DNA from: Gemmatimonadota bacterium
Lineage (GTDB): Bacteria > Gemmatimonadota > Gemmatimonadetes > Gemmatimonadales > GWC2-71-9
DNA: 43,407 bases
Reading direction: 5' to 3'
Assembly (NCBI GenBank): GCA_041482775.1
Contig: JBGPEJ010000001.1
Coordinates: 1 to 43,407 of the forward strand
The notes below the pieces were generated by a model, which did no database searches, was not told the origin of the DNA, and saw only the letters and a program-made list of their open reading frames with translations. Numbering within the stretch: the first letter of the stretch is position 1; the number at the start of each line of letters is the position of its first letter. Below, piece by piece: positions 36,170-43,407 of this stretch. Both the position numbers and the translations under genes were made by a program.

Positions 36170-38341
36170 TCACCCTCCCGGATGGTACTCCCGTTCGGTG
36201 TGCCCCTTGAGCTGCGGTCGGTAGAAGTACACCTCGCGGAGATCGCCGGTGCTGTAGCGACCCGCCTGATCGTTGAAGTGCGGGGACCTGGGGTCGCTGT
36301 TCTCCCCGGCGGCGGTGACGGCCAGGGCGCGGACGCTGTCCCCGAACTCCACCACCGCCACGAAGCTGTTGCCGCTGGTGCCGTAGATCTTCCTGGTGCC
36401 CTTGTAGGCCCGCGCCCCGAACGAGGCGAGCGAGCCCCATCGCGCCGAGGTGAACCCGACCGGGGTGCTGGGCCCCACGTCGTTGAACGGCTGCACGATG
36501 TCTCCGGTCAAGCGCTGGAACCGGTTGATGTCCCCCCAGGGCGTCTTCCAGCTCCCGAACCGCGCGGTGAGGGTGTCGGCGGCGGTGGCGAGCGCCTGGA
36601 GCCGCTCGGCAGCGGTCGTCCTGGTGGCCAGGTACTCGTCGACCGGCATCCCCGCGGTCCGGGCCTCGCGAGCCACCTGCCGGCCGAGCTCGTCTCCCCA
36701 GAAGACGGCGAGGGAGGTCGGTACCGACGTCACCGACCACCGCAGGTCCCACTCCCGAAGGAGTCTGATCGGTTCGGCCAGCTTCGCCTTGAGCGGGTCC
36801 GCGGCAGGGCTCTCGTCGTAGGCCTTGAGCAGCGGGGGGATCAGGTCGGCGAATGCGGTAAGATACCTGTCATAGGCCGCGTCCCGGAGCGTCGCCGGCG
36901 TGAAGTCCTTCTTGTCCCGCAGCACCCGGACGGCGTGGTGCCCGCGGGCCGATTCCCCGCCGCTCTCCACATAGGCGGGGTACTCCACCTTCTTCGGGCT
37001 GTTGGGGCCGGCCGCCGACCAGGGGGAGTCGTTGCTGTTGTAGAGCCAGCCGTTCGGCGGATTGAGCAGGTGGGGTGTCTCGTCCACCGAGAGCGGCGCC
37101 TGCCACTCGGTTGCCGGGTCGCTCCCGTCCACCGGCTTGGTCCAGTCGAACCGGGTGTCGCGCCGGGGGATGAAGTTGGCGTGGAAATAGGCAATGTCCC
37201 CGTCGGCATCGGCGAAGATCGTGTTGTTGGAGGAGTTGGTGTGCAGCTCCATCGTTTCGCGGAAGGCCTGGTAGCTCCGGGCCTTGGTCCGGGAGTACGA
37301 CTGGGTCAGCGCCTTCACCGGCTCCTGCATCAGCCGGACGCTCACCCACTTGCCGTCGGCCTCGCGCACGATGGGCCCGTGGTGGGTCCGGTAGACGGTG
37401 AACTCCCGCTTCGCCATGCCGGTGTCGGTTCTGAAGGGCACCGTGATCCTGGTCGCAATCAACGGACGCTCTTCGGTACCGTACCGATAGCGGAGCGTAT
37501 CGCCCTTCTTCACGATCGTCTCCAGATACTCGTCGATATTGTCCACGCCGCTCGAGGTGTGCATCCACCCGGCGCGGTCATTGAATCCCTGGTACACGAA
37601 GAACTGGCCCCAGGTCACGGCGCCGTAGACGTTGAGGCCCTCCTCGCTGGTTACCTGGGCTTCGGCGCGGAAGAAGAAGGAGGTGTGGGGATTGATCAGC
37701 AGCAGGGCGTGATGAGATGCGGTGTTGGAGGGCGCAATCGCCATCCCGTTCGATCCGGCCGGCTCCACCGACTCGGCGTCAGCTCCGGCCGGGGCCTGGC
37801 TTACCGGGCGCTTCCCATAGAACGCCTCGAGCCGGCTGAGCGCAATCGATTCGATGTCTCCGCCGATGCTCCCCTCGCTGAAGGTGAGCGCCATCCAGGG
37901 CTCGAATCGCGTGATGACGCGCGGGGTCACCCGGGGATGCTTGGAGAGATAGAAGTTCAGGCCATCGGCCCAGGCGTTCATCAGCGTCTTGAGCCATTCC
38001 GGACTGGCCTGATACTTCGCCCGCATGCTGTCGGGGTCGATGAAGAGCTTCATCCGCAGATCCTGATACACCGCGGATTCCCCCTCGGCCTCCGCCAGCC
38101 GCCCCATGGCGTTCAGGTAGTTGGTCTCCACCCGGTTGAAGTCGTCCTCGGCCTGGGCGTAGATCAGCCCGAAGACGGCATCGGCGTCGCTCTTCCCGTA
38201 GATGTGCGGAATGCCATGATCATCCCGGAGGATGGTGACGTTCCGGGCCTGCCGTTCCCAGCGCGCCGCTTCCTGATTTCCTGCGCCCAGCGGGGTGCAC
38301 GCGGCGCATGCCGCGGCGGAGAGGAGTGCGAGTTTGTTCAT
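36170..38341 (-). CDS. Penicillin/AHL acylase family (S45 Ntn-hydrolase), probable lipoprotein
   Basis: 723 aa from the ATG at 38341 (MNKLALLSAAAC, lipobox-like). It contains ILRDDHGIPHIYG, the autoprocessing/nucleophile site EPAGSNGMAIAP and LLINPHTSFFF. Confidence 0.9.
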   Translation of the reverse strand: MNKLALLSAAACAACTPLGAGNQEAARWERQARNVTILRDDHGIPHIYGKSDADAVFGLIYAQAEDDFNRVETNYLNAMGRLAEAEGESAVYQDLRMKLFIDPDSMRAKYQASPEWLKTLMNAWADGLNFYLSKHPRVTPRVITRFEPWMALTFSEGSIGGDIESIALSRLEAFYGKRPVSQAPAGADAESVEPAGSNGMAIAPSNTASHHALLLINPHTSFFFRAEAQVTSEEGLNVYGAVTWGQFFVYQGFNDRAGWMHTSSGVDNIDEYLETIVKKGDTLRYRYGTEERPLIATRITVPFRTDTGMAKREFTVYRTHHGPIVREADGKWVSVRLMQEPVKALTQSYSRTKARSYQAFRETMELHTNSSNNTIFADADGDIAYFHANFIPRRDTRFDWTKPVDGSDPATEWQAPLSVDETPHLLNPPNGWLYNSNDSPWSAAGPNSPKKVEYPAYVESGGESARGHHAVRVLRDKKDFTPATLRDAAYDRYLTAFADLIPPLLKAYDESPAADPLKAKLAEPIRLLREWDLRWSVTSVPTSLAVFWGDELGRQVAREARTAGMPVDEYLATRTTAAERLQALATAADTLTARFGSWKTPWGDINRFQRLTGDIVQPFNDVGPSTPVGFTSARWGSLASFGARAYKGTRKIYGTSGNSFVAVVEFGDSVRALAVTAAGENSDPRSPHFNDQAGRYSTGDLREVYFYRPQLKGHTEREYHPGG

Positions 38342-38616
38342 GAGGGACCGGACGGGGAGAGCGAGGGCATCTGGACCAAGCCGACCAAGAGAGACTCGAG
38401 CGGGAGAGGGGAGGATGGCTCCGGGTAACTCCTGAAGATGCGCCCAAGACGGCACCCCCGCAACATCGGGCCGCGTTGCGCACCGCGTGAGGCGGCCGCA
38501 TACTTCACCGGCCGCGAAGGGCCCGCACGCCCCGCCCTCAATCGGGGAAGGCTCCGCTGATCAATCCACTCATCACCGCCCGGCAGGGTGTAGGGCAGCT
38601 GCTGGGGGTCCGGGCA

Positions 38617-39711
38617 ATGGCGGGCGTACCCATCCGGCGCCAGCTCCGTCAACTGCTCGAGCTCCGCCGTGCCACCGGGATGAGCCGCGCCGAGTACTTC
38701 CAGTACCGCCTCTGGCGCCCCGAGCTTACCTCTGTTGAACGTCTCAGCTACACCAGCCAGCGGGAGCGTCGCCTGACAGAACGGGCCACCAACCGCCACG
38801 GGCCCGATACTCGTGGCCGGCCGAAATCCGAGATGTTGGCTTTGTTCGCCGACGCCGGATTGCCGGTGCCGGCGCTGGTAGGGCGGGTCGGTGTCACCGC
38901 ACCCCCGGCCAGCGACTTGGTGCCGGTTGCGCACACTGCCGCTGCTCTCGCCACGCTGCTCGAGGCCCACGGCCATGGTGGCCTGGTGTTCAAGCCGGAA
39001 CATGGCGGGCAGGGGAATGACATCCTCGTGGCAACCGCGGCCGGCGCGGGCGGGGTGAGGTTGCTCTCCGGCGCCGAGTTTTCCGCCGAACAGTTGTGGC
39101 AGCGGCTGATTTCCCTTGCCGGGGAGTCCTGGCGCATCGAGCGCTGGGTGCGCCCCCACCCGGCCCTGGCGGGGTTTCGTCCCGGTGCCACGCCGACCGT
39201 CCGGCTTCTGACGCTGCTGGTCGACGGAGGCGTGGTAGTGCACACCGCCGGCCTCAAGGTACCTGTGGGCGACTCAGGGGTGGACAACCTCCACAAGGGC
39301 AACTTGGCGTCGGCGGTGGATCTCGACACCGGTGTCGTGGGCCCGGCCACCGACCGCAGCGGAGTACCGCGTTTCGACCATCACCCGACCAGCAAGGTGG
39401 CGATCACCGGCTGCCGGATTCCCGATTGGCCGGGTGTTCTGGAGGTGGCGCGCGCCGGCGCCCCCCTGCTGGCGCCGCGCCGTGCCATGGGATGGGATAT
39501 CGCCGTGACGGCGACCGGTCCGGTGGTGTTCGAAGCGAACACGAGCTGGGGCCACGACCTGGCGCAGCTACCGGCGGGTCGCGGACTCACCCGGGGCGCC
39601 TTCATCCGGTTGCTGCACGAGGTGGGCGCTGGATGGATTCTGGAGCGCCGCCGCAGGGCGTCACCCGAGTGGAGAGAGTTCGAGGCCGCGGCGTTGGCGG
39701 GCGGGAGGTGA
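38617..39711 (+). CDS. ATP-grasp ligase, ATPgrasp_ST-like (sugar-transfer-associated type)
   Basis: 364 aa. MSRAEYFQYRLWRPEL (N-terminal region), GGLVFKPEHGGQGNDILV, WRIERWVRPHP, VRLLTLLVDGGVVVHTAGLKVP, NLHKGNLASAVDLDTGV and GWDIAVTATGPVVFEAN resemble that family. The assignment is from memory of the family, not a search. Confidence 0.7.
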   Translation: MAGVPIRRQLRQLLELRRATGMSRAEYFQYRLWRPELTSVERLSYTSQRERRLTERATNRHGPDTRGRPKSEMLALFADAGLPVPALVGRVGVTAPPASDLVPVAHTAAALATLLEAHGHGGLVFKPEHGGQGNDILVATAAGAGGVRLLSGAEFSAEQLWQRLISLAGESWRIERWVRPHPALAGFRPGATPTVRLLTLLVDGGVVVHTAGLKVPVGDSGVDNLHKGNLASAVDLDTGVVGPATDRSGVPRFDHHPTSKVAITGCRIPDWPGVLEVARAGAPLLAPRRAMGWDIAVTATGPVVFEANTSWGHDLAQLPAGRGLTRGAFIRLLHEVGAGWILERRRRASPEWREFEAAALAGGR

Positions 39712-39749
39712 GGCGGGTCACACCGCGCCCCTTCACCACTCCGCCCGAT

Positions 39750-41645
39750 TCAGCTTTCCCTTGGCACCGCCCGCAGCCGCTCAGTCATCTCCTCGGGCGT
39801 CTTCCCGAGCAGGTAGAGCTGAGCCCAGAGTTCGATCCCCACCATCTTGCGGCCCAGCATCGGGGTTGCCCGCATCACCGCGTGCATCCGCTCGATCTCC
39901 CGTCCGCCCCATTTGAACAGCTCCGGCACGATGCCGCCGCGGAGCAGTGGCTCGTAACCCGCGATGAAGGCATCGGGCACCGCAAAGCCCACCTTGGACG
40001 CATGGATGATGCTGTGGGGCAGCAGCCCTTCGGCGGCGGCCTTCACTACCCGCTTGCCCTGGCGGTTCCCGTACTTCGATGCCGGGGCCAAGTGGAGCCC
40101 GTAGTCGATGAGCTCGGTTTCGAGGAACGGGACCCGCGCCTCGATGGACGCCGCCATGGTCATTTTGTCGTTGGCGGTGAGGAGCACCCGCAGGTGATGG
40201 TAGAAATCGTCGAACTCGCGCGCGAGGAAGGCGCGCTCGTCGATACGGGGGATTGCTTCGAGTCGCGCGAAGAGTGACCGCGCCCGGCCCCGCCGCATGC
40301 CGCCGTCGATCACCAGCTCGGCGCCCGGCGGCGCCTGGTTCCACTCCCCCCGGCGATCGAACGGTTCCGTGGCGAGTTGCTCGAGATCGAACGGCGCCAG
40401 CGATTGCAGCCAGCGCCCGAGGGCGCGCAACGGACCGATGTTGGGGAGCAGCCGCGCGTGCCATTGCCTGAGCCTCCACATTCGCCCCGCCTCCGCCTGC
40501 CATTGATACCCGCCGAAGAGCTCGTCCGATCCCTCTCCGGTCACCAAGACCTTGAACCCCTCGTCCCGCACCGCCTCACTCACCTTGAGCCCCAGCGGGT
40601 TCTGGTGGAAGTGGAGCGGATCGTCGTTGTGCCAGGCGGCCAGCGCCCAGAGCCAGGGATACTCCGCTTCGGCGATCCGGACCCGCCGAAGCTGCACGCC
40701 GAGGTGATCGGCCACCTGTTGCGCCTTATCCGCCTCCGATTCGCGCAGTCCTTCCGCTTCGGCGACGAAGGCCACCAGATCGGGTTTATGCCTCCGGGCG
40801 ATCGCGGTGGTGAGGGACGAATCGAGCCCGCCGCTGCACATCACCGCGACCGGCGCGTCGCTCTGCAAATGCAGCTCGACGCTCCGTTCGAGGCGGTGGA
40901 GAAACTCGGCCACATGCTGCTGGAAGGGCTGGTCGCGGCTCCGCAGGATCCGGTCGACGTCGAGGTCGCGCTCCAGGTCGAACCAGGTGATGGTTGCGGT
41001 GGCGTTGGCGGTACAGCGCAGCATCGTCCCCGGCAGGACGCTCCGGACTCCCTCGAACGGGGTCCAGTCGCCGGCGAGTCGCTGGAGGTACACCTGGGTG
41101 ACCAGCGCGTGGACATCGGCACGACAGGGAACCGCCGGATGGGCGAAGAGCGCCTTGGCCTCGGAGGCGAACACCACGGTTCCGCCGGTGTCGGCCAGGT
41201 AGAGCGGCTTGATGCCGGCGCGGTCGCGGGCGAGCCAGAGCGCTGCCGACCGGTGATCATACCAGGCCAGCGCGAACATCCCGTTGAACCGGGGAATAGC
41301 CGCCTCGGGGCCCCAGCGGTCCAAGGCGTGGAGCACCACCTCGGTGTCGCAATGCGAGGTGAAGCGGATTCCCTCCCGCTCCAGTTCCTTCTTGAGCTCG
41401 CGCCAGTTGTACACCTCGCCGTTATAGGCGAGGGCGCTGCTGCCGTCCGGGGTGACGAAGGGCTGGTGTCCACGGGGACTCAGGTCCAGGATGCTGAGCC
41501 GGTCGAGGCCCAAGGCCACCGGTCCGCCGGTCCAGGTGCCCCGGTCGTCGGGTCCCCGGTGGCGTTGCCGGTCGAGCATCCGGGGCAGCACGACCGGGTC
41601 GGCCGGTCGGCCATCGCGGTGCCAGTACCCTGCGATTCCGCACAT
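39750..41645 (-). CDS. Asparagine synthase (glutamine-hydrolysing) family amidotransferase, AsnB-type
   Basis: 631 aa from the ATG at 41645. It has an intact N-terminal nucleophile (MCGIAGYW), glutaminase-domain motifs (RLSILDLS, YNGEVYN, DTEVV) and the PP-loop VMCSGGLDSS. Confidence 0.9.
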   Translation of the reverse strand: MCGIAGYWHRDGRPADPVVLPRMLDRQRHRGPDDRGTWTGGPVALGLDRLSILDLSPRGHQPFVTPDGSSALAYNGEVYNWRELKKELEREGIRFTSHCDTEVVLHALDRWGPEAAIPRFNGMFALAWYDHRSAALWLARDRAGIKPLYLADTGGTVVFASEAKALFAHPAVPCRADVHALVTQVYLQRLAGDWTPFEGVRSVLPGTMLRCTANATATITWFDLERDLDVDRILRSRDQPFQQHVAEFLHRLERSVELHLQSDAPVAVMCSGGLDSSLTTAIARRHKPDLVAFVAEAEGLRESEADKAQQVADHLGVQLRRVRIAEAEYPWLWALAAWHNDDPLHFHQNPLGLKVSEAVRDEGFKVLVTGEGSDELFGGYQWQAEAGRMWRLRQWHARLLPNIGPLRALGRWLQSLAPFDLEQLATEPFDRRGEWNQAPPGAELVIDGGMRRGRARSLFARLEAIPRIDERAFLAREFDDFYHHLRVLLTANDKMTMAASIEARVPFLETELIDYGLHLAPASKYGNRQGKRVVKAAAEGLLPHSIIHASKVGFAVPDAFIAGYEPLLRGGIVPELFKWGGREIERMHAVMRATPMLGRKMVGIELWAQLYLLGKTPEEMTERLRAVPRES

Positions 41646-41698
41646 CGAAATGCCCTGGAAAGGGTAAGCGTCCCGGCCGCGGCGGCGAGAACCGCGGG

Positions 41699-41881
41699 TT
41701 AGGTGGCGCCGGGAGCTCGGCCGGTTCTCGATTGGCTCTCCACGCGGGCCAGCGCGGCTGCAAGCTCGCGCTGGCCCCGCGCCAACTCGTTGACTCGGAG
41801 CAAGATCCAGATTCCCAGGAGCGTCGGTGCGGTCCAGAAGACCAGGAATACGATAAGCTCGACCCAGCCGATGTTGAGCAT
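41699..41881 (-). CDS. 60-aa small membrane protein upstream of the AsnB-type gene
   Basis: GGAGGGGG lies just upstream of the ATG at 41881. The sequence is MLNIGWVELIVFLVFWTAPTLLGIWILLRVNELARGQRELAAALARVESQSRTGRAPGAT, with two short hydrophobic segments and an amphipathic tail. It ends 53 nt before the AsnB ATG. Confidence 0.55.
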   Translation of the reverse strand: MLNIGWVELIVFLVFWTAPTLLGIWILLRVNELARGQRELAAALARVESQSRTGRAPGAT

Positions 41882-42245
41882 CACCCCCTCCGAATCCTGT
41901 TCTCGTCCACCAACCCACCGCGGGTGCCCGTCCACCCGATCATACCCCCGGAACCGGCTCGCCACCAACTCACGCCGGGTAGCCCTCCCGGTACCCCGAC
42001 TCTTGATCCTGCCTCCGCTGTTTCTTACATTGTCTGGAGCAGAAGCACCGGCACCACGCCGATTTCTCGCACCAAGGGTCTTTCGAGTGACGCGAAACTA
42101 CCTGTGCCCCATTACCGCCAAGCTCGGGCTTCGAGCGATCCGGGACGACGTGCGCCCGGACGCCTCGGATACCCGCGCCGGCGGCTTCGGGAGCCGCGTT
42201 GCGGCCGCCCAGAGGATTCAAGCACCCTAGGTAACGATCAGATCG

Positions 42246-42318
42246 CGTGATCCTCCGCCTTCCGGGTGCCTCCAGGGACCCGGAAGGCTTTTCGTTGGTA
42301 CCACGAACGAGGATCACG
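42246..42318 (+). promoter_or_regulatory. SD-sequestering outer helix enclosing the terminator hairpin
   Basis: CGTGATCCTC (42246-42255) is the exact complement of GAGGATCACG (42309-42318). The latter contains the GAGGA Shine-Dalgarno sequence 8 nt before ATG 42322. Confidence 0.4.
42257..42296 (+). terminator. Intrinsic terminator within the leader of the ABC exporter gene
   Basis: GCCTTCCGGG (42257-42266) pairs with CCCGGAAGGC (42279-42288) across a 12-nt loop, followed by TTTTCGTT (42289-42296). The T-run is on the plus strand only. Confidence 0.55.
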
Positions 42319-42321
42319 GCA

Positions 42322-43407
42322 ATGGGAATCACGGAACCAACCCTCGACCAGGCCATCGTAACCCGCTACGCGGGGCAGCCGGCCCGGTTGCCGGCGGAGC
42401 TCCGCCGGCAGATCGAGGCCGAGTGGCACGGTGCGCCGGTCGTGCTCTATGCCTTCTCCGACCTGGGCCCGAGCCTGGAGCTCGCGGCATCCTGGCTGGC
42501 CATCGGCCACGCCCGGGTGGCCGTGGCGCGGGAGCGCGTCGACACCCGGGAGTGGGAGCTCACCTCGTTCCCCCGCGAGCGCCTCACCGCCGTGCGGGAG
42601 AACCCCGGACTCTCGGCGACCACGCTGACCCTGCTCGGCGACCCCGGCGACCCACCGCTCGTGGTGGTGCGCTACAGCCACCGGCAGCGCCAGGCGATGG
42701 AGAACCTGCGCTTCGTGCTCGAGGAAGGAATCGCCGAGCGGACCGTCGCCTCGACCGACCCCGACCACGAGTACGCTGAGGCGGTGGCCCGCCCGGTCCG
42801 GGACGCGCAGGCGCTGGTGGCCGGACGGCCCACCGCGGTCATCTGGCGGCTGCTCGCCTACTTGAGGCCCTACCGCCGGGAGCTGACCCTCGGCATGGGC
42901 GCAGCCACGCTGATCACCCTGGTGAGCCTGATCCCGCCCTGGCTCGCGGGTTATGTGCTGGACCGGCTGGTGACGCCGGCCCGCTCCGGCTCGCTGCCGC
43001 TGGGCCGGGCCTCGCTGCTGGCCTGGCTCGCGGTCTCGACCATGGCCGTGGTGTACCTCCTCCGCCAGGCGGCGGCGGTGGTGCGCCTCCGGCTCATGGC
43101 CATCATGGGCGAGTGGGTGGCGCGGGACCTGAGGACCGAGCTCTACGAGCACTTGCAGAGCCTTTCGCTCTCGTTCTTCGCGCGGAAGAAGACCGGCGGG
43201 CTCATCACCCGCGTGTCCGCCGATACCGACCGGCTGTGGGAGTTCCTGGCCTTCGGCGTGGTGGACGTCTCGCTCTCGCTGGTGATGCTGATCGGGCTCG
43301 GCATCGTGCTGGTGAGCCTCGATTGGCGGCTGGGACTCGCGATGGTACTTCCGGTGCCCCTGTTCTGCTGGCTCATCTTCCGGCACGGGGAATCGATCAA
43401 CCGGCTC
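42322..43407 (+). CDS. ABC exporter (fused TMD-NBD type), N-terminal ~165-aa cytoplasmic extension plus start of the TMD; 3' end outside the window
   Basis: This ORF is absent from the track because it has no stop in the window. My own translation from ATG 42322 is open to 43407: MGITEPTLDQAIV...RLLAYLRPYRRELTLGMGAATLITLVSLIPPWLAGYVLD...LYEHLQSLSLSFFARKKTGGLITRVSADTDRLWEF...LVSLDWRLGLAMV. These are classic type-I ABC exporter TMD motifs. Confidence 0.85.
   Translation, partial: MGITEPTLDQAIVTRYAGQPARLPAELRRQIEAEWHGAPVVLYAFSDLGPSLELAASWLAIGHARVAVARERVDTREWELTSFPRERLTAVRENPGLSATTLTLLGDPGDPPLVVVRYSHRQRQAMENLRFVLEEGIAERTVASTDPDHEYAEAVARPVRDAQALVAGRPTAVIWRLLAYLRPYRRELTLGMGAATLITLVSLIPPWLAGYVLDRLVTPARSGSLPLGRASLLAWLAVSTMAVVYLLRQAAAVVRLRLMAIMGEWVARDLRTELYEHLQSLSLSFFARKKTGGLITRVSADTDRLWEFLAFGVVDVSLSLVMLIGLGIVLVSLDWRLGLAMVLPVPLFCWLIFRHGESINRL

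Follow-up and report, generated by a model that had tools for sequence, protein, structure and literature searches.

The window analysed here is a 43,407-nt stretch of DNA (positions 1 to 43,407 of contig JBGPEJ010000001.1, GenBank assembly GCA_041482775.1) from a bacterium of the order Gemmatimonadales, phylum Gemmatimonadota. At its end it carries, on the + strand, the start of a gene for an ATP-binding cassette (ABC) exporter with a PH-like N-terminal domain (42322-43407; the window ends within the gene), preceded by a 440-bp divergent intergenic region, around one-third of which turns out to be a conserved small open reading frame (ORF). A first-pass annotation had read the RNA just upstream of the exporter start codon as an intrinsic terminator nested in a helix that buries the Shine-Dalgarno (SD) sequence, and had taken it for the expression platform of a riboswitch or of a leader-peptide system whose sensor was left unnamed. 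Our analyses of this leader and its orthologues favour the leader-peptide half of that suggestion, with the conserved upstream ORF (uORF; 42087-42230), whose 3′ end is complementary to the terminator, as the proposed sensor, and go against the riboswitch half, for which neither an Rfam match nor an aptamer was found.

The nested structure was confirmed at the coordinates and with the sequences first given for it, and RNAfold returned the same fold. On the + strand, CGTGATCCTC (42246-42255) is the exact reverse complement of GAGGATCACG (42309-42318), which gives a perfect 10-bp outer helix between an anti-SD arm, with the conserved core GUGAUCC, and the SD arm GAGGAUCACG (core GGAUCAC), 3-5 nt upstream of the exporter start codon (ATG at 42322). 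Inside it, GCCTTCCGGG (42257-42266) is the exact reverse complement of CCCGGAAGGC (42279-42288), and these form the arms of the terminator hairpin (42257-42288), to which the fold adds one more U-A pair; the hairpin is followed at 42289-42296 by the tail TTTTCGTT, or UUUUCGUU as the U-rich tail of an intrinsic terminator, whose T columns are nearly invariant in the alignment. Folding of 42236-42330 placed the terminator within the anti-SD/SD helix at -47.3 kcal/mol, compared to a mean of -31.3 kcal/mol for shuffled sequences (z = -4.5; 0 of 200 as stable as the native one), with the terminator hairpin by itself at -26.7 kcal/mol. We refer to this arrangement as the OFF fold. An extra small hairpin (UUCGU…ACGAA) is possible between the terminator and the SD arm at 42291-42307 in the window; it takes part of the U-tract to yield a three-helix OFF structure, and is apparently not kept beyond the genus.

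Orthologous loci were collected by searching with the N-terminal domain of the exporter, in three sets: 14 loci of the same genus; loci from 46 genomes in three families, out of 401 taken from the order Gemmatimonadales (a tally that counts the unpublished genome G114, whose sequence was left out of the analysis); and 80 loci fetched from 379 matches in genome_contigs. The leader was present at every locus with upstream sequence in the first ortholog sets. A calibrated covariance model built from 53 orthologous leaders then detected it in 78 of 79 further Gemmatimonadales loci, each time ending at the exporter ATG, as a single copy in the window's own genome, and, when 151 genomes from the whole phylum were sampled, in 13 of them, all of families f1 and f2; the order-wide ortholog set showed that family f3 carries it as well. 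The leader is thus kept in >130 genomes, upstream of the orthologous exporter.

Both helices of the OFF fold are conserved in these leaders. In the 53 orthologues, positions of the terminator and outer helix formed standard pairs in 98.0% of cases, versus 30-58% with slid partners, and in the 78 additional leaders 98.9% were paired. Six of the 11 terminator pairs were changed on both sides in the set of 53, a number matched by 0 of 500 shuffles (for example, C-G became U-A in 15 sequences). The outer helix GUGAUCC/GGAUCAC, 98.6-98.8% paired in the two sets, is essentially invariant and yields no covariation signal; its few changes are all of the G.U type and hence point to RNA pairing on the + strand. 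Of the two helices, it is the terminator that covaries; G.U changes in it are tolerated solely in RNA of the + strand. The 9 nt 3′ of the stem average 63% U in 101 leaders, compared to 21% U overall, in support of a true intrinsic terminator. From the stem to the exporter ATG, itself invariant in the aligned leaders, there are only ~20-67 nt and, since conservation starts at a promoter further upstream, the exporter should be expressible only via read-through. The comparison as a whole supports a double lock, of termination and SD sequestration, kept across the order.

One could argue that the second lock is the only one, with control purely translational: the hairpins would mask the SD, for instance in thermosensing or to hinder degradation, with a U-tail that does not terminate transcription. 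The anti-SD/SD helix is indeed the most invariant element of the leader, and the U-tracts are imperfect, with 3-5 U. We nevertheless regard this as highly improbable, given a tail with 63% U in a 21%-U leader, a GC-rich stem of 11-13 bp that directly adjoins it, and an antiterminator (described below) that targets the 5′ arm of the hairpin, which would be needless for SD control alone.

A variant of the 3′ end occurs in a sub-clade comprising L041, L042 and ~12 leaders of ~155 nt (e.g. L092, L103, L115 and L131), which have a ~35-nt insertion between the terminator and the start codon with an additional C-rich/G-rich hairpin. L042 has a new G-rich SD, its former GGAUCAC being degenerate (GGAUUCAC), so that the insertion in leaders of this type looks like a rebuilt SD lock.

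Sequence conservation among the orthologues begins exactly at a sigma-70-like promoter, TTGATC (42003-42008) and TACATT (42027-42032) with an 18-nt spacer, for which transcription is predicted to start at ~42039; the 5′ untranslated region between it and the uORF is variable. The pattern TTGNNN-N16-19-T[AT]NNNT, mostly as TTGCCC-N17-TAGTTT, was found at an equal distance in 78 of 97 leaders. A generic promoter/terminator scanner called neither the hairpin nor a promoter in the leader, the former because its 12-nt loop exceeds the scanner's 8-nt limit and the latter because it is non-canonical.

Downstream of this promoter, the SD sequence AAGGG (42074-42078) lies 8 nt upstream of the GTG that starts the uORF, which has 47 sense codons and a UAG stop in a conserved frame. 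In the orthologues, an SD-like stretch, purine-rich or GG-containing, keeps its spacing (77 of 99 leaders under a strict rule), and a start codon is found 38-52 codons upstream of the conserved UAG in 98 of the 99. The uORF frame is free of stops over its last 40 codons in all 99 distinct leaders (the remaining frames in 78 and 46), insertions and deletions come in multiples of three, UAG is the stop codon in every leader, and the distance from it to the terminator stem has a median of 26 nt (range 25-32). The encoded peptides vary far more than this layout. Differences at codon positions 1, 2 and 3 numbered 1333, 1396 and 2021, only 34% of the differing codons being synonymous, and across families few peptide motifs remain (VRP, RIAS and a C-terminal RAP). 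Leader peptides matched no family in Pfam or NCBIfam, and no runs of one amino acid were found in them; Arg is moderately enriched (15.7% vs 9.7%), the final codon is usually Pro, and the last five codons are rare, with a relative adaptiveness of 0.17-0.59 compared to 0.83 in genes. What is conserved in this putative ORF is the act of translating it, the peptide being weakly constrained, and a weakly constrained peptide with a conserved frame, start and stop spacing is what characterises a regulatory leader peptide, not a functional protein.

If the small ORF instead specified a small protein with a function of its own or a peptide for export, as a substrate or partner of the exporter, the hairpin would be a fixed partial terminator setting the ratio of small-ORF to exporter mRNA, like in some peptide-biosynthesis operons. 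An ORF with its SD conserved directly upstream of the exporter, a stable hairpin between both cistrons, and the modest excess of position-3 differences would all suit such a product. The peptide is, however, poorly conserved across families, and those motifs that persist are the ones coinciding with RNA elements; 66% of its differing codons are non-synonymous, no protein-family match was obtained, and it lacks a hydrophobic or signal-like segment. Neither would this alternative explain the complementarity of the stop region to the terminator arm or the sequestration of the SD, and the biosynthetic-looking genes nearby (AsnB, ATP-grasp) are not conserved beside the leader. We therefore deem it unlikely.

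A riboswitch or a protein-dependent antiterminator, in which a ligand or an RNA-binding protein would pick the fold and the ORF be incidental, appears still less probable, and indeed scarcely credible. The leader is long, conserved and highly structured, it has a classical expression platform, and hairpins in the middle of the uORF are conserved inside clades, as might be expected of such an element. On the other hand, a cmscan search of 41600-42700 against Rfam at E<=10 gave no match in the leader and only three chance-level matches, all in the ABC coding region; the leader has no conserved non-coding block upstream, the 5′ untranslated region ahead of the ORF being variable and the conserved part that precedes the terminator behaving like a coding frame under weak constraint, unlike an aptamer; and the conserved start, SD, frame and stop position of the ORF would be left unexplained.

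One of these mid-uORF hairpins, formed by TCCGGG and CCCGGA at 42139-42160, occurs in the window and within its genus; it may serve for pausing or as an anti-antiterminator, or be a clade-specific structure. The first-pass annotation had noted that each of these hexamers occurs twice, and all four copies are indeed where it placed them (42139-42144, 42155-42160, 42261-42266 and 42279-42284). The attenuator scheme of alternative 1:2, 2:3 and 3:4 pairings built on them did not hold up: the mid-uORF motif binds the terminator arm at -14.8 kcal/mol, hardly more tightly than random 18-mers of the uORF (-12.5 kcal/mol), turns up in no more than about half of the leaders and does not covary, and hence is not the conserved switch. 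Two further elements in the uORF came to light. Stepwise folds of growing transcripts drew attention to GAGGAU at 42212-42217, a copy of the SD-arm sequence that can pair with the anti-SD ahead of transcription of the true SD; this pairing is restricted to the window and genus, and the copy belongs to a purine-rich tract by which, in other clades, the antiterminator is lengthened. A small hairpin at 42180-42205, 10-17 codons ahead of the uORF stop, overlaps the RIAS peptide motif and occurs also in L008, L055 and L032; it holds its position and varies in sequence (GGCGAU-CGC-AUCGCC, GGCGG-CGACU-CCGCC, GGGCG-UAUUG-CGUCC), and might be an RNA polymerase pause hairpin.

The conserved switch appears to lie instead at the end of the uORF. 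There, the conserved sequence (G)AGCACCC-UAG-AAG complements CUUC-C-GGGUGCU(C), which makes up the top of the terminator 5′ arm and the start of the loop; this would account for the conservation of the loop bases UGC(U/C) in an otherwise variable loop. In the window, the 5′ arm of this antiterminator spans 42222-42232, with GCACCC (the Ala-Pro codons, 42222-42227) pairing with GGGUGC (42264-42269) and AGGU (42229-42232) with GCCU (42257-42260), such that the U of the uORF stop codon UAG is unpaired and its G paired. The tip of the antiterminator (42236-42252) is formed by GAUCA (42236-42240) and UGAUC (42248-42252), which sequesters the anti-SD core; in other clades the tip uses GGAUY:GAUCC. 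When each leader was folded as a transcript truncated before the 3′ arm of the terminator, a single long hairpin was obtained, made of the core helix, a small bulge at the stop codon and the tip, and this was the minimum free energy (MFE) structure in 98 of 101 distinct leaders, that of the window included. In fixed alignment columns, the core helix was 85% paired in one alignment and 95.8% paired in 78 leaders, compared to 27-63% when slid; the tip was paired in 64-75% of cells, lower because its register varies. Moreover, the end of the uORF binds the terminator arm at -20.3 kcal/mol, compared to the -12.5 kcal/mol of random uORF 18-mers.

Compensatory changes in the antiterminator were observed in a few leaders of divergent lineages. 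In L016 and L037, GAGC:GCUC is replaced by GAAG:CUUC, and the peptide ends in RRP or RRT rather than RAP; in L085 and L095, a pair at the CCC/GGG end passes from C-G through U.G to U-A, the 3′ arm of the terminator being changed too; L059 has U-A for G-C, and L146 and L107 carry wobble substitutions. With conserved complementarity and a consistent prediction in its favour, the antiterminator is well supported, short of proof. Stepwise folding of the window sequence gave the antiterminator as the MFE structure until the transcript end reached ~42282, after which the terminator won, with the full OFF fold attaining -45.3 kcal/mol once the SD arm was transcribed. The terminator is thus thermodynamically favoured as soon as its 3′ arm is out, and the antiterminator could act only kinetically, as is usual for attenuators.

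These changes at the uORF end also bear on whether the peptide itself might matter, as a nascent arrest peptide whose R-A-P-stop ending stalls the ribosome when a small molecule or exporter activity is sensed, in the manner of TnaC, SpeFL, MsrDL or SecM/RAPP, with the stalled ribosome, rather than its time of arrival, setting the RNA fold. A proline ahead of a stop codon slows termination, and RAGP and RAPP motifs arrest ribosomes. R-A-P followed by UAG is the consensus ending of the leader peptides, the stop is always UAG and the last five codons are rare, all of which fit an arrest peptide; MsrDL, for its part, stalls at its stop codon (PMC10314930). The ending nevertheless gives way to RRP, RRT, RAT or KSP in lineages with matching changes in the terminator loop, which argues that the constraint follows RNA pairing and not the peptide, and the stop codon, too, contributes its G to an antiterminator pair. 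Overall conservation of the peptide is weak and, with a ribosome at the stop covering the antiterminator arm, stalling there would repress. Arrest by the peptide is in our judgement a doubtful proposition.

The reading we prefer, with a probability of about 0.7, is that the leader acts as a ribosome-mediated leader-peptide attenuator on the operon formed by the ABC exporter and a following DUF1854 gene in Gemmatimonadales, at the level of transcription and of translation alike. From the single promoter at ~42003-42032, a transcript would be made with the 47-codon leader ORF as its first cistron, and the RNA 3′ of this ORF would adopt one of two mutually exclusive folds. In the OFF state, the hairpin at 42257-42288 and its U-tract would halt RNA polymerase and, in transcripts that read through, the GUGAUCC...GGAUCAC helix would bury the exporter ribosome-binding site. 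In the ON state, 42222-42232 would pair with 42257-42269 and the tip (42236-42240 with 42248-42252) would hold the anti-SD, leaving the SD open and no terminator. A ribosome with its last sense codon in the P site covers ~15 nt on each side, so that at the uORF stop it would cover the whole antiterminator 5′ arm; a ribosome translating the leader to its stop is thus predicted to let the terminator and SD lock form, whereas one delayed more than ~8 codons upstream would leave the arm free, the antiterminator would form first, and read-through with a free SD would follow. The rare last codons and final Pro probably prolong occupancy at the uORF stop, or could equally be by-products of the pairing constraint. 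As the OFF fold is thermodynamically favoured, each later ribosome finishing the leader could reset a full-length mRNA to OFF. The analysis shows the sequence elements and how far they are conserved, the covariation of the terminator, the conserved complementarity behind the antiterminator and a leader ORF kept translatable; termination in vivo and the direction of regulation are what we infer from sequence. The inducing signal is probably a general slowing of translation, such as by ribosome-targeting compounds or amino-acid limitation, and by analogy with the bmrB and vmlR leaders considered below, the foremost candidates are compounds of this kind or translational stress in general.

Several observations weigh against this attenuator. 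Only two antiterminator pairs are changed on both sides, a number reached by 163 of 500 shuffles, formal covariation support being weak because both strands are nearly invariant. The energy of the uORF end with its own terminator arm and with a swapped one was -20.3 versus -19.7 kcal/mol, with no gain since both elements are conserved, and a shuffled 5′ segment still sequesters 52% of the terminator arm, compared to 81% for the native one, an effect of base composition. In the window, the antiterminator (-19.9 kcal/mol) is weaker than the terminator (-26.7 kcal/mol) and also weaker than the antiterminator in most orthologues. In 54 leaders no consistent anti-antiterminator partner was found, the uORF hairpins being clade-specific; the antiterminator 5′ arm was paired upstream in the MFE structure of 22 of these 54, with a mean pairing probability of 0.53. 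Hence, an untranslated leader is predicted to be ON, unlike in the trp paradigm. The leader peptides also have no single-amino-acid runs that would name a signal. Finally, none of the RNA runs contains the window. Soil metatranscriptome contigs matching the locus of a relative at 88-97% cover the leader and the first ~125 nt of the gene, and some pieces span the terminator, compatible with read-through transcripts; these contigs, however, show neither 3′ ends nor strand and could be of DNA origin.

The SD arm has a further property that may or may not be relevant to the attenuator. GGAUCAC (42312-42318) is identical to the part of the 16S rRNA 3′ tail (…GGAUCACCUCCUU) that lies 5′ of CCUCC in two Gemmatimonadales relatives (L164:1530-1550; L162, - strand, 1490-1470), so that all 7 nt of GUGAUCC (42247-42253), which in the window lies ~17 nt past the uORF stop, are complementary to the 16S tail. 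In many orthologues, the GGA of the GGAUCAC arm is the only SD-like element before the exporter ATG. This identity may be a coincidence or a hint of ribosome tethering, for which the viral TURBS elements in termination-reinitiation offer a comparison. That the anti-SD also tethers a ribosome fresh from termination on the uORF, or a free 30S subunit, by its 16S tail, and thereby senses ribosome or 16S-tail availability or aids reinitiation, strikes us as a long shot; if true, the leader would do more than time ribosome arrival.

Compared to described systems, the leader has the predicted features of an attenuator (a leader ORF with its own SD, an intrinsic terminator before the gene, and a mutually exclusive antiterminator overlapping the ORF) as well as those of SD-sequestering leaders of the ermC or vmlR SL-4 type (an anti-SD:SD helix with an alternative fold that would release the SD). 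Tandem cognate codons, typical of amino-acid biosynthetic (trp/his/leu) attenuators, are absent from the leader peptides. In the trp/his/phe attenuators of Proteobacteria, a ribosome at the leader stop masks the segment that pairs with the terminator 5′ arm, and one stalled upstream permits the antiterminator. The Gemmatimonadales leader differs in lacking cognate amino-acid runs and in being 3-4 times longer, in that a 1:2 anti-antiterminator is not demonstrable and translational control is added, and in that the regulated genes are those of an exporter, not of a biosynthetic pathway. These leader-peptide attenuators are treated also in PMC3082878 and PMC6614838.

The predicted logic is that of classical leader-peptide attenuation, and the nearest described cases are bmrB and vmlR, both of Bacillus subtilis. 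Like the Gemmatimonadales leader, bmrB in the bmrBCD operon is a leader ORF of ~50 codons (53 aa), co-transcribed with an ABC exporter and with alternative stem-loops and an intrinsic terminator; its translation decides read-through, and rare codons influence the decision (PMC4191407). For bmrB, induction by antibiotics has been shown. The bmrB terminator lies inside the coding region, whereas in Gemmatimonadales it follows the stop at a median of 26 nt (25-32), the stop-codon region itself serves as the predicted antiterminator arm, and the SD lock is added. The two have no sequence relation and belong to different phyla, and where bmrB precedes the genes of the BmrC/D heterodimer, the Gemmatimonadales leader precedes those of a single PH-domain ABC protein and of DUF1854. 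The vmlR leader shares a terminator and an SD-sequestering hairpin that are both undone by one antiterminator, a fold selected there by a ribosome stalled on the uORF (PMC9226507). Its uORF has three codons within an anti-antiterminator, with NusG-dependent pausing, compared to the 38-52 codons found here, where an anti-antiterminator is not established; and its terminator stands beside the SD hairpin instead of nested in the SD helix. In leaders of the msrDL-msrD or TnaC type (PMC10314930, PMC8429421), a leader peptide likewise precedes an intrinsic terminator (msrDL), and a possible further likeness is that termination is slow in the context of a proline or a stop codon. Stalling at the stop induces in these systems and needs a defined peptide and a ligand, whereas stop occupancy is predicted to repress here, and the C-terminal motif of the Gemmatimonadales leader, unlike those defined peptides, follows RNA pairing.

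No description of this leader was found in Rfam or in the searchable literature. From the nearest cases it differs in the sequence family, the phylum, the nested terminator, the stop region as antiterminator arm and the regulated operon. Gemmatimonadota, with almost no characterised RNA regulation, thus gains one well-defined cis-regulatory leader, with >130 natural variants to draw on as well as a calibrated covariance model. For annotation, it means that a 440-bp "intergenic" region contains a real small ORF. The nested design, in which one antiterminator would undo both locks, is a compact form of coupled transcriptional and translational attenuation. The leader also offers a handle on the function of the PH-domain ABC exporter and DUF1854 protein, as whatever slows leader translation should induce the pair.

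In the exporter, the ABC_membrane match begins at residue 190, after an N-terminal extension of ~190 residues. The corresponding domain in the window (42322-42900) has a predicted PH-like beta-sandwich fold capped by a helix (AlphaFold predicted local distance difference test score, pLDDT, 81.9). PH domains account for all of the best PDB matches of the model, among them a bacterial DUF1696 PH-like protein, with weak E values of ~1e-3 to 1e-2; the domain has no similarity to the downstream DUF1854 protein. A full-length ortholog from a sister genome has as its best match NF052233, "cyanophycin metabolism-associated ABC transporter" (651.7, cut-off 880), aligned over its entire length. The gene 3′ of the exporter ortholog scores 80.9 with NF052234 (cut-off 150) and passes for Pfam DUF1854 (PF08909), and in the orthologues a DUF1854 gene always follows the exporter (e.g. 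L066:3688-6488; L067:6122-8825). In beta-Proteobacteria the pair was proposed to export an amino-acid polymer (Price et al., 10.1101/072470). In the five genomes checked for cyanophycin synthetase, G000, G001, G086 and G180 had no cphA above the cut-off, and the sole strong match, in G166, was ~520 kb distant. We discarded a link of the exporter to cyanophycin, since four of the five genomes have no above-cut-off synthetase and NF052233 and NF052234 both fall below their cut-offs, and the name "cyanophycin metabolism-associated" probably does not describe the role of the pair in Gemmatimonadales.

On the other side of the intergenic region, the genes at 36170-41884 in the window encode an acylase, an ATPgrasp_ST protein, an AsnB-type amidotransferase and a 61-aa membrane ORF. 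The AsnB-like, ATP-grasp and acylase neighbours suggested that the small ORF could be the precursor of a lasso peptide or another ribosomally synthesized and post-translationally modified peptide, a candidate we rejected since the neighbours are not conserved and conservation starts at the promoter. In orthologous loci, the acylase, ATPgrasp_ST and AsnB genes and the membrane ORF are not beside the leader, and G001 has a histidine kinase upstream; the genes at 36170-41884 are hence probably unrelated to the exporter operon.

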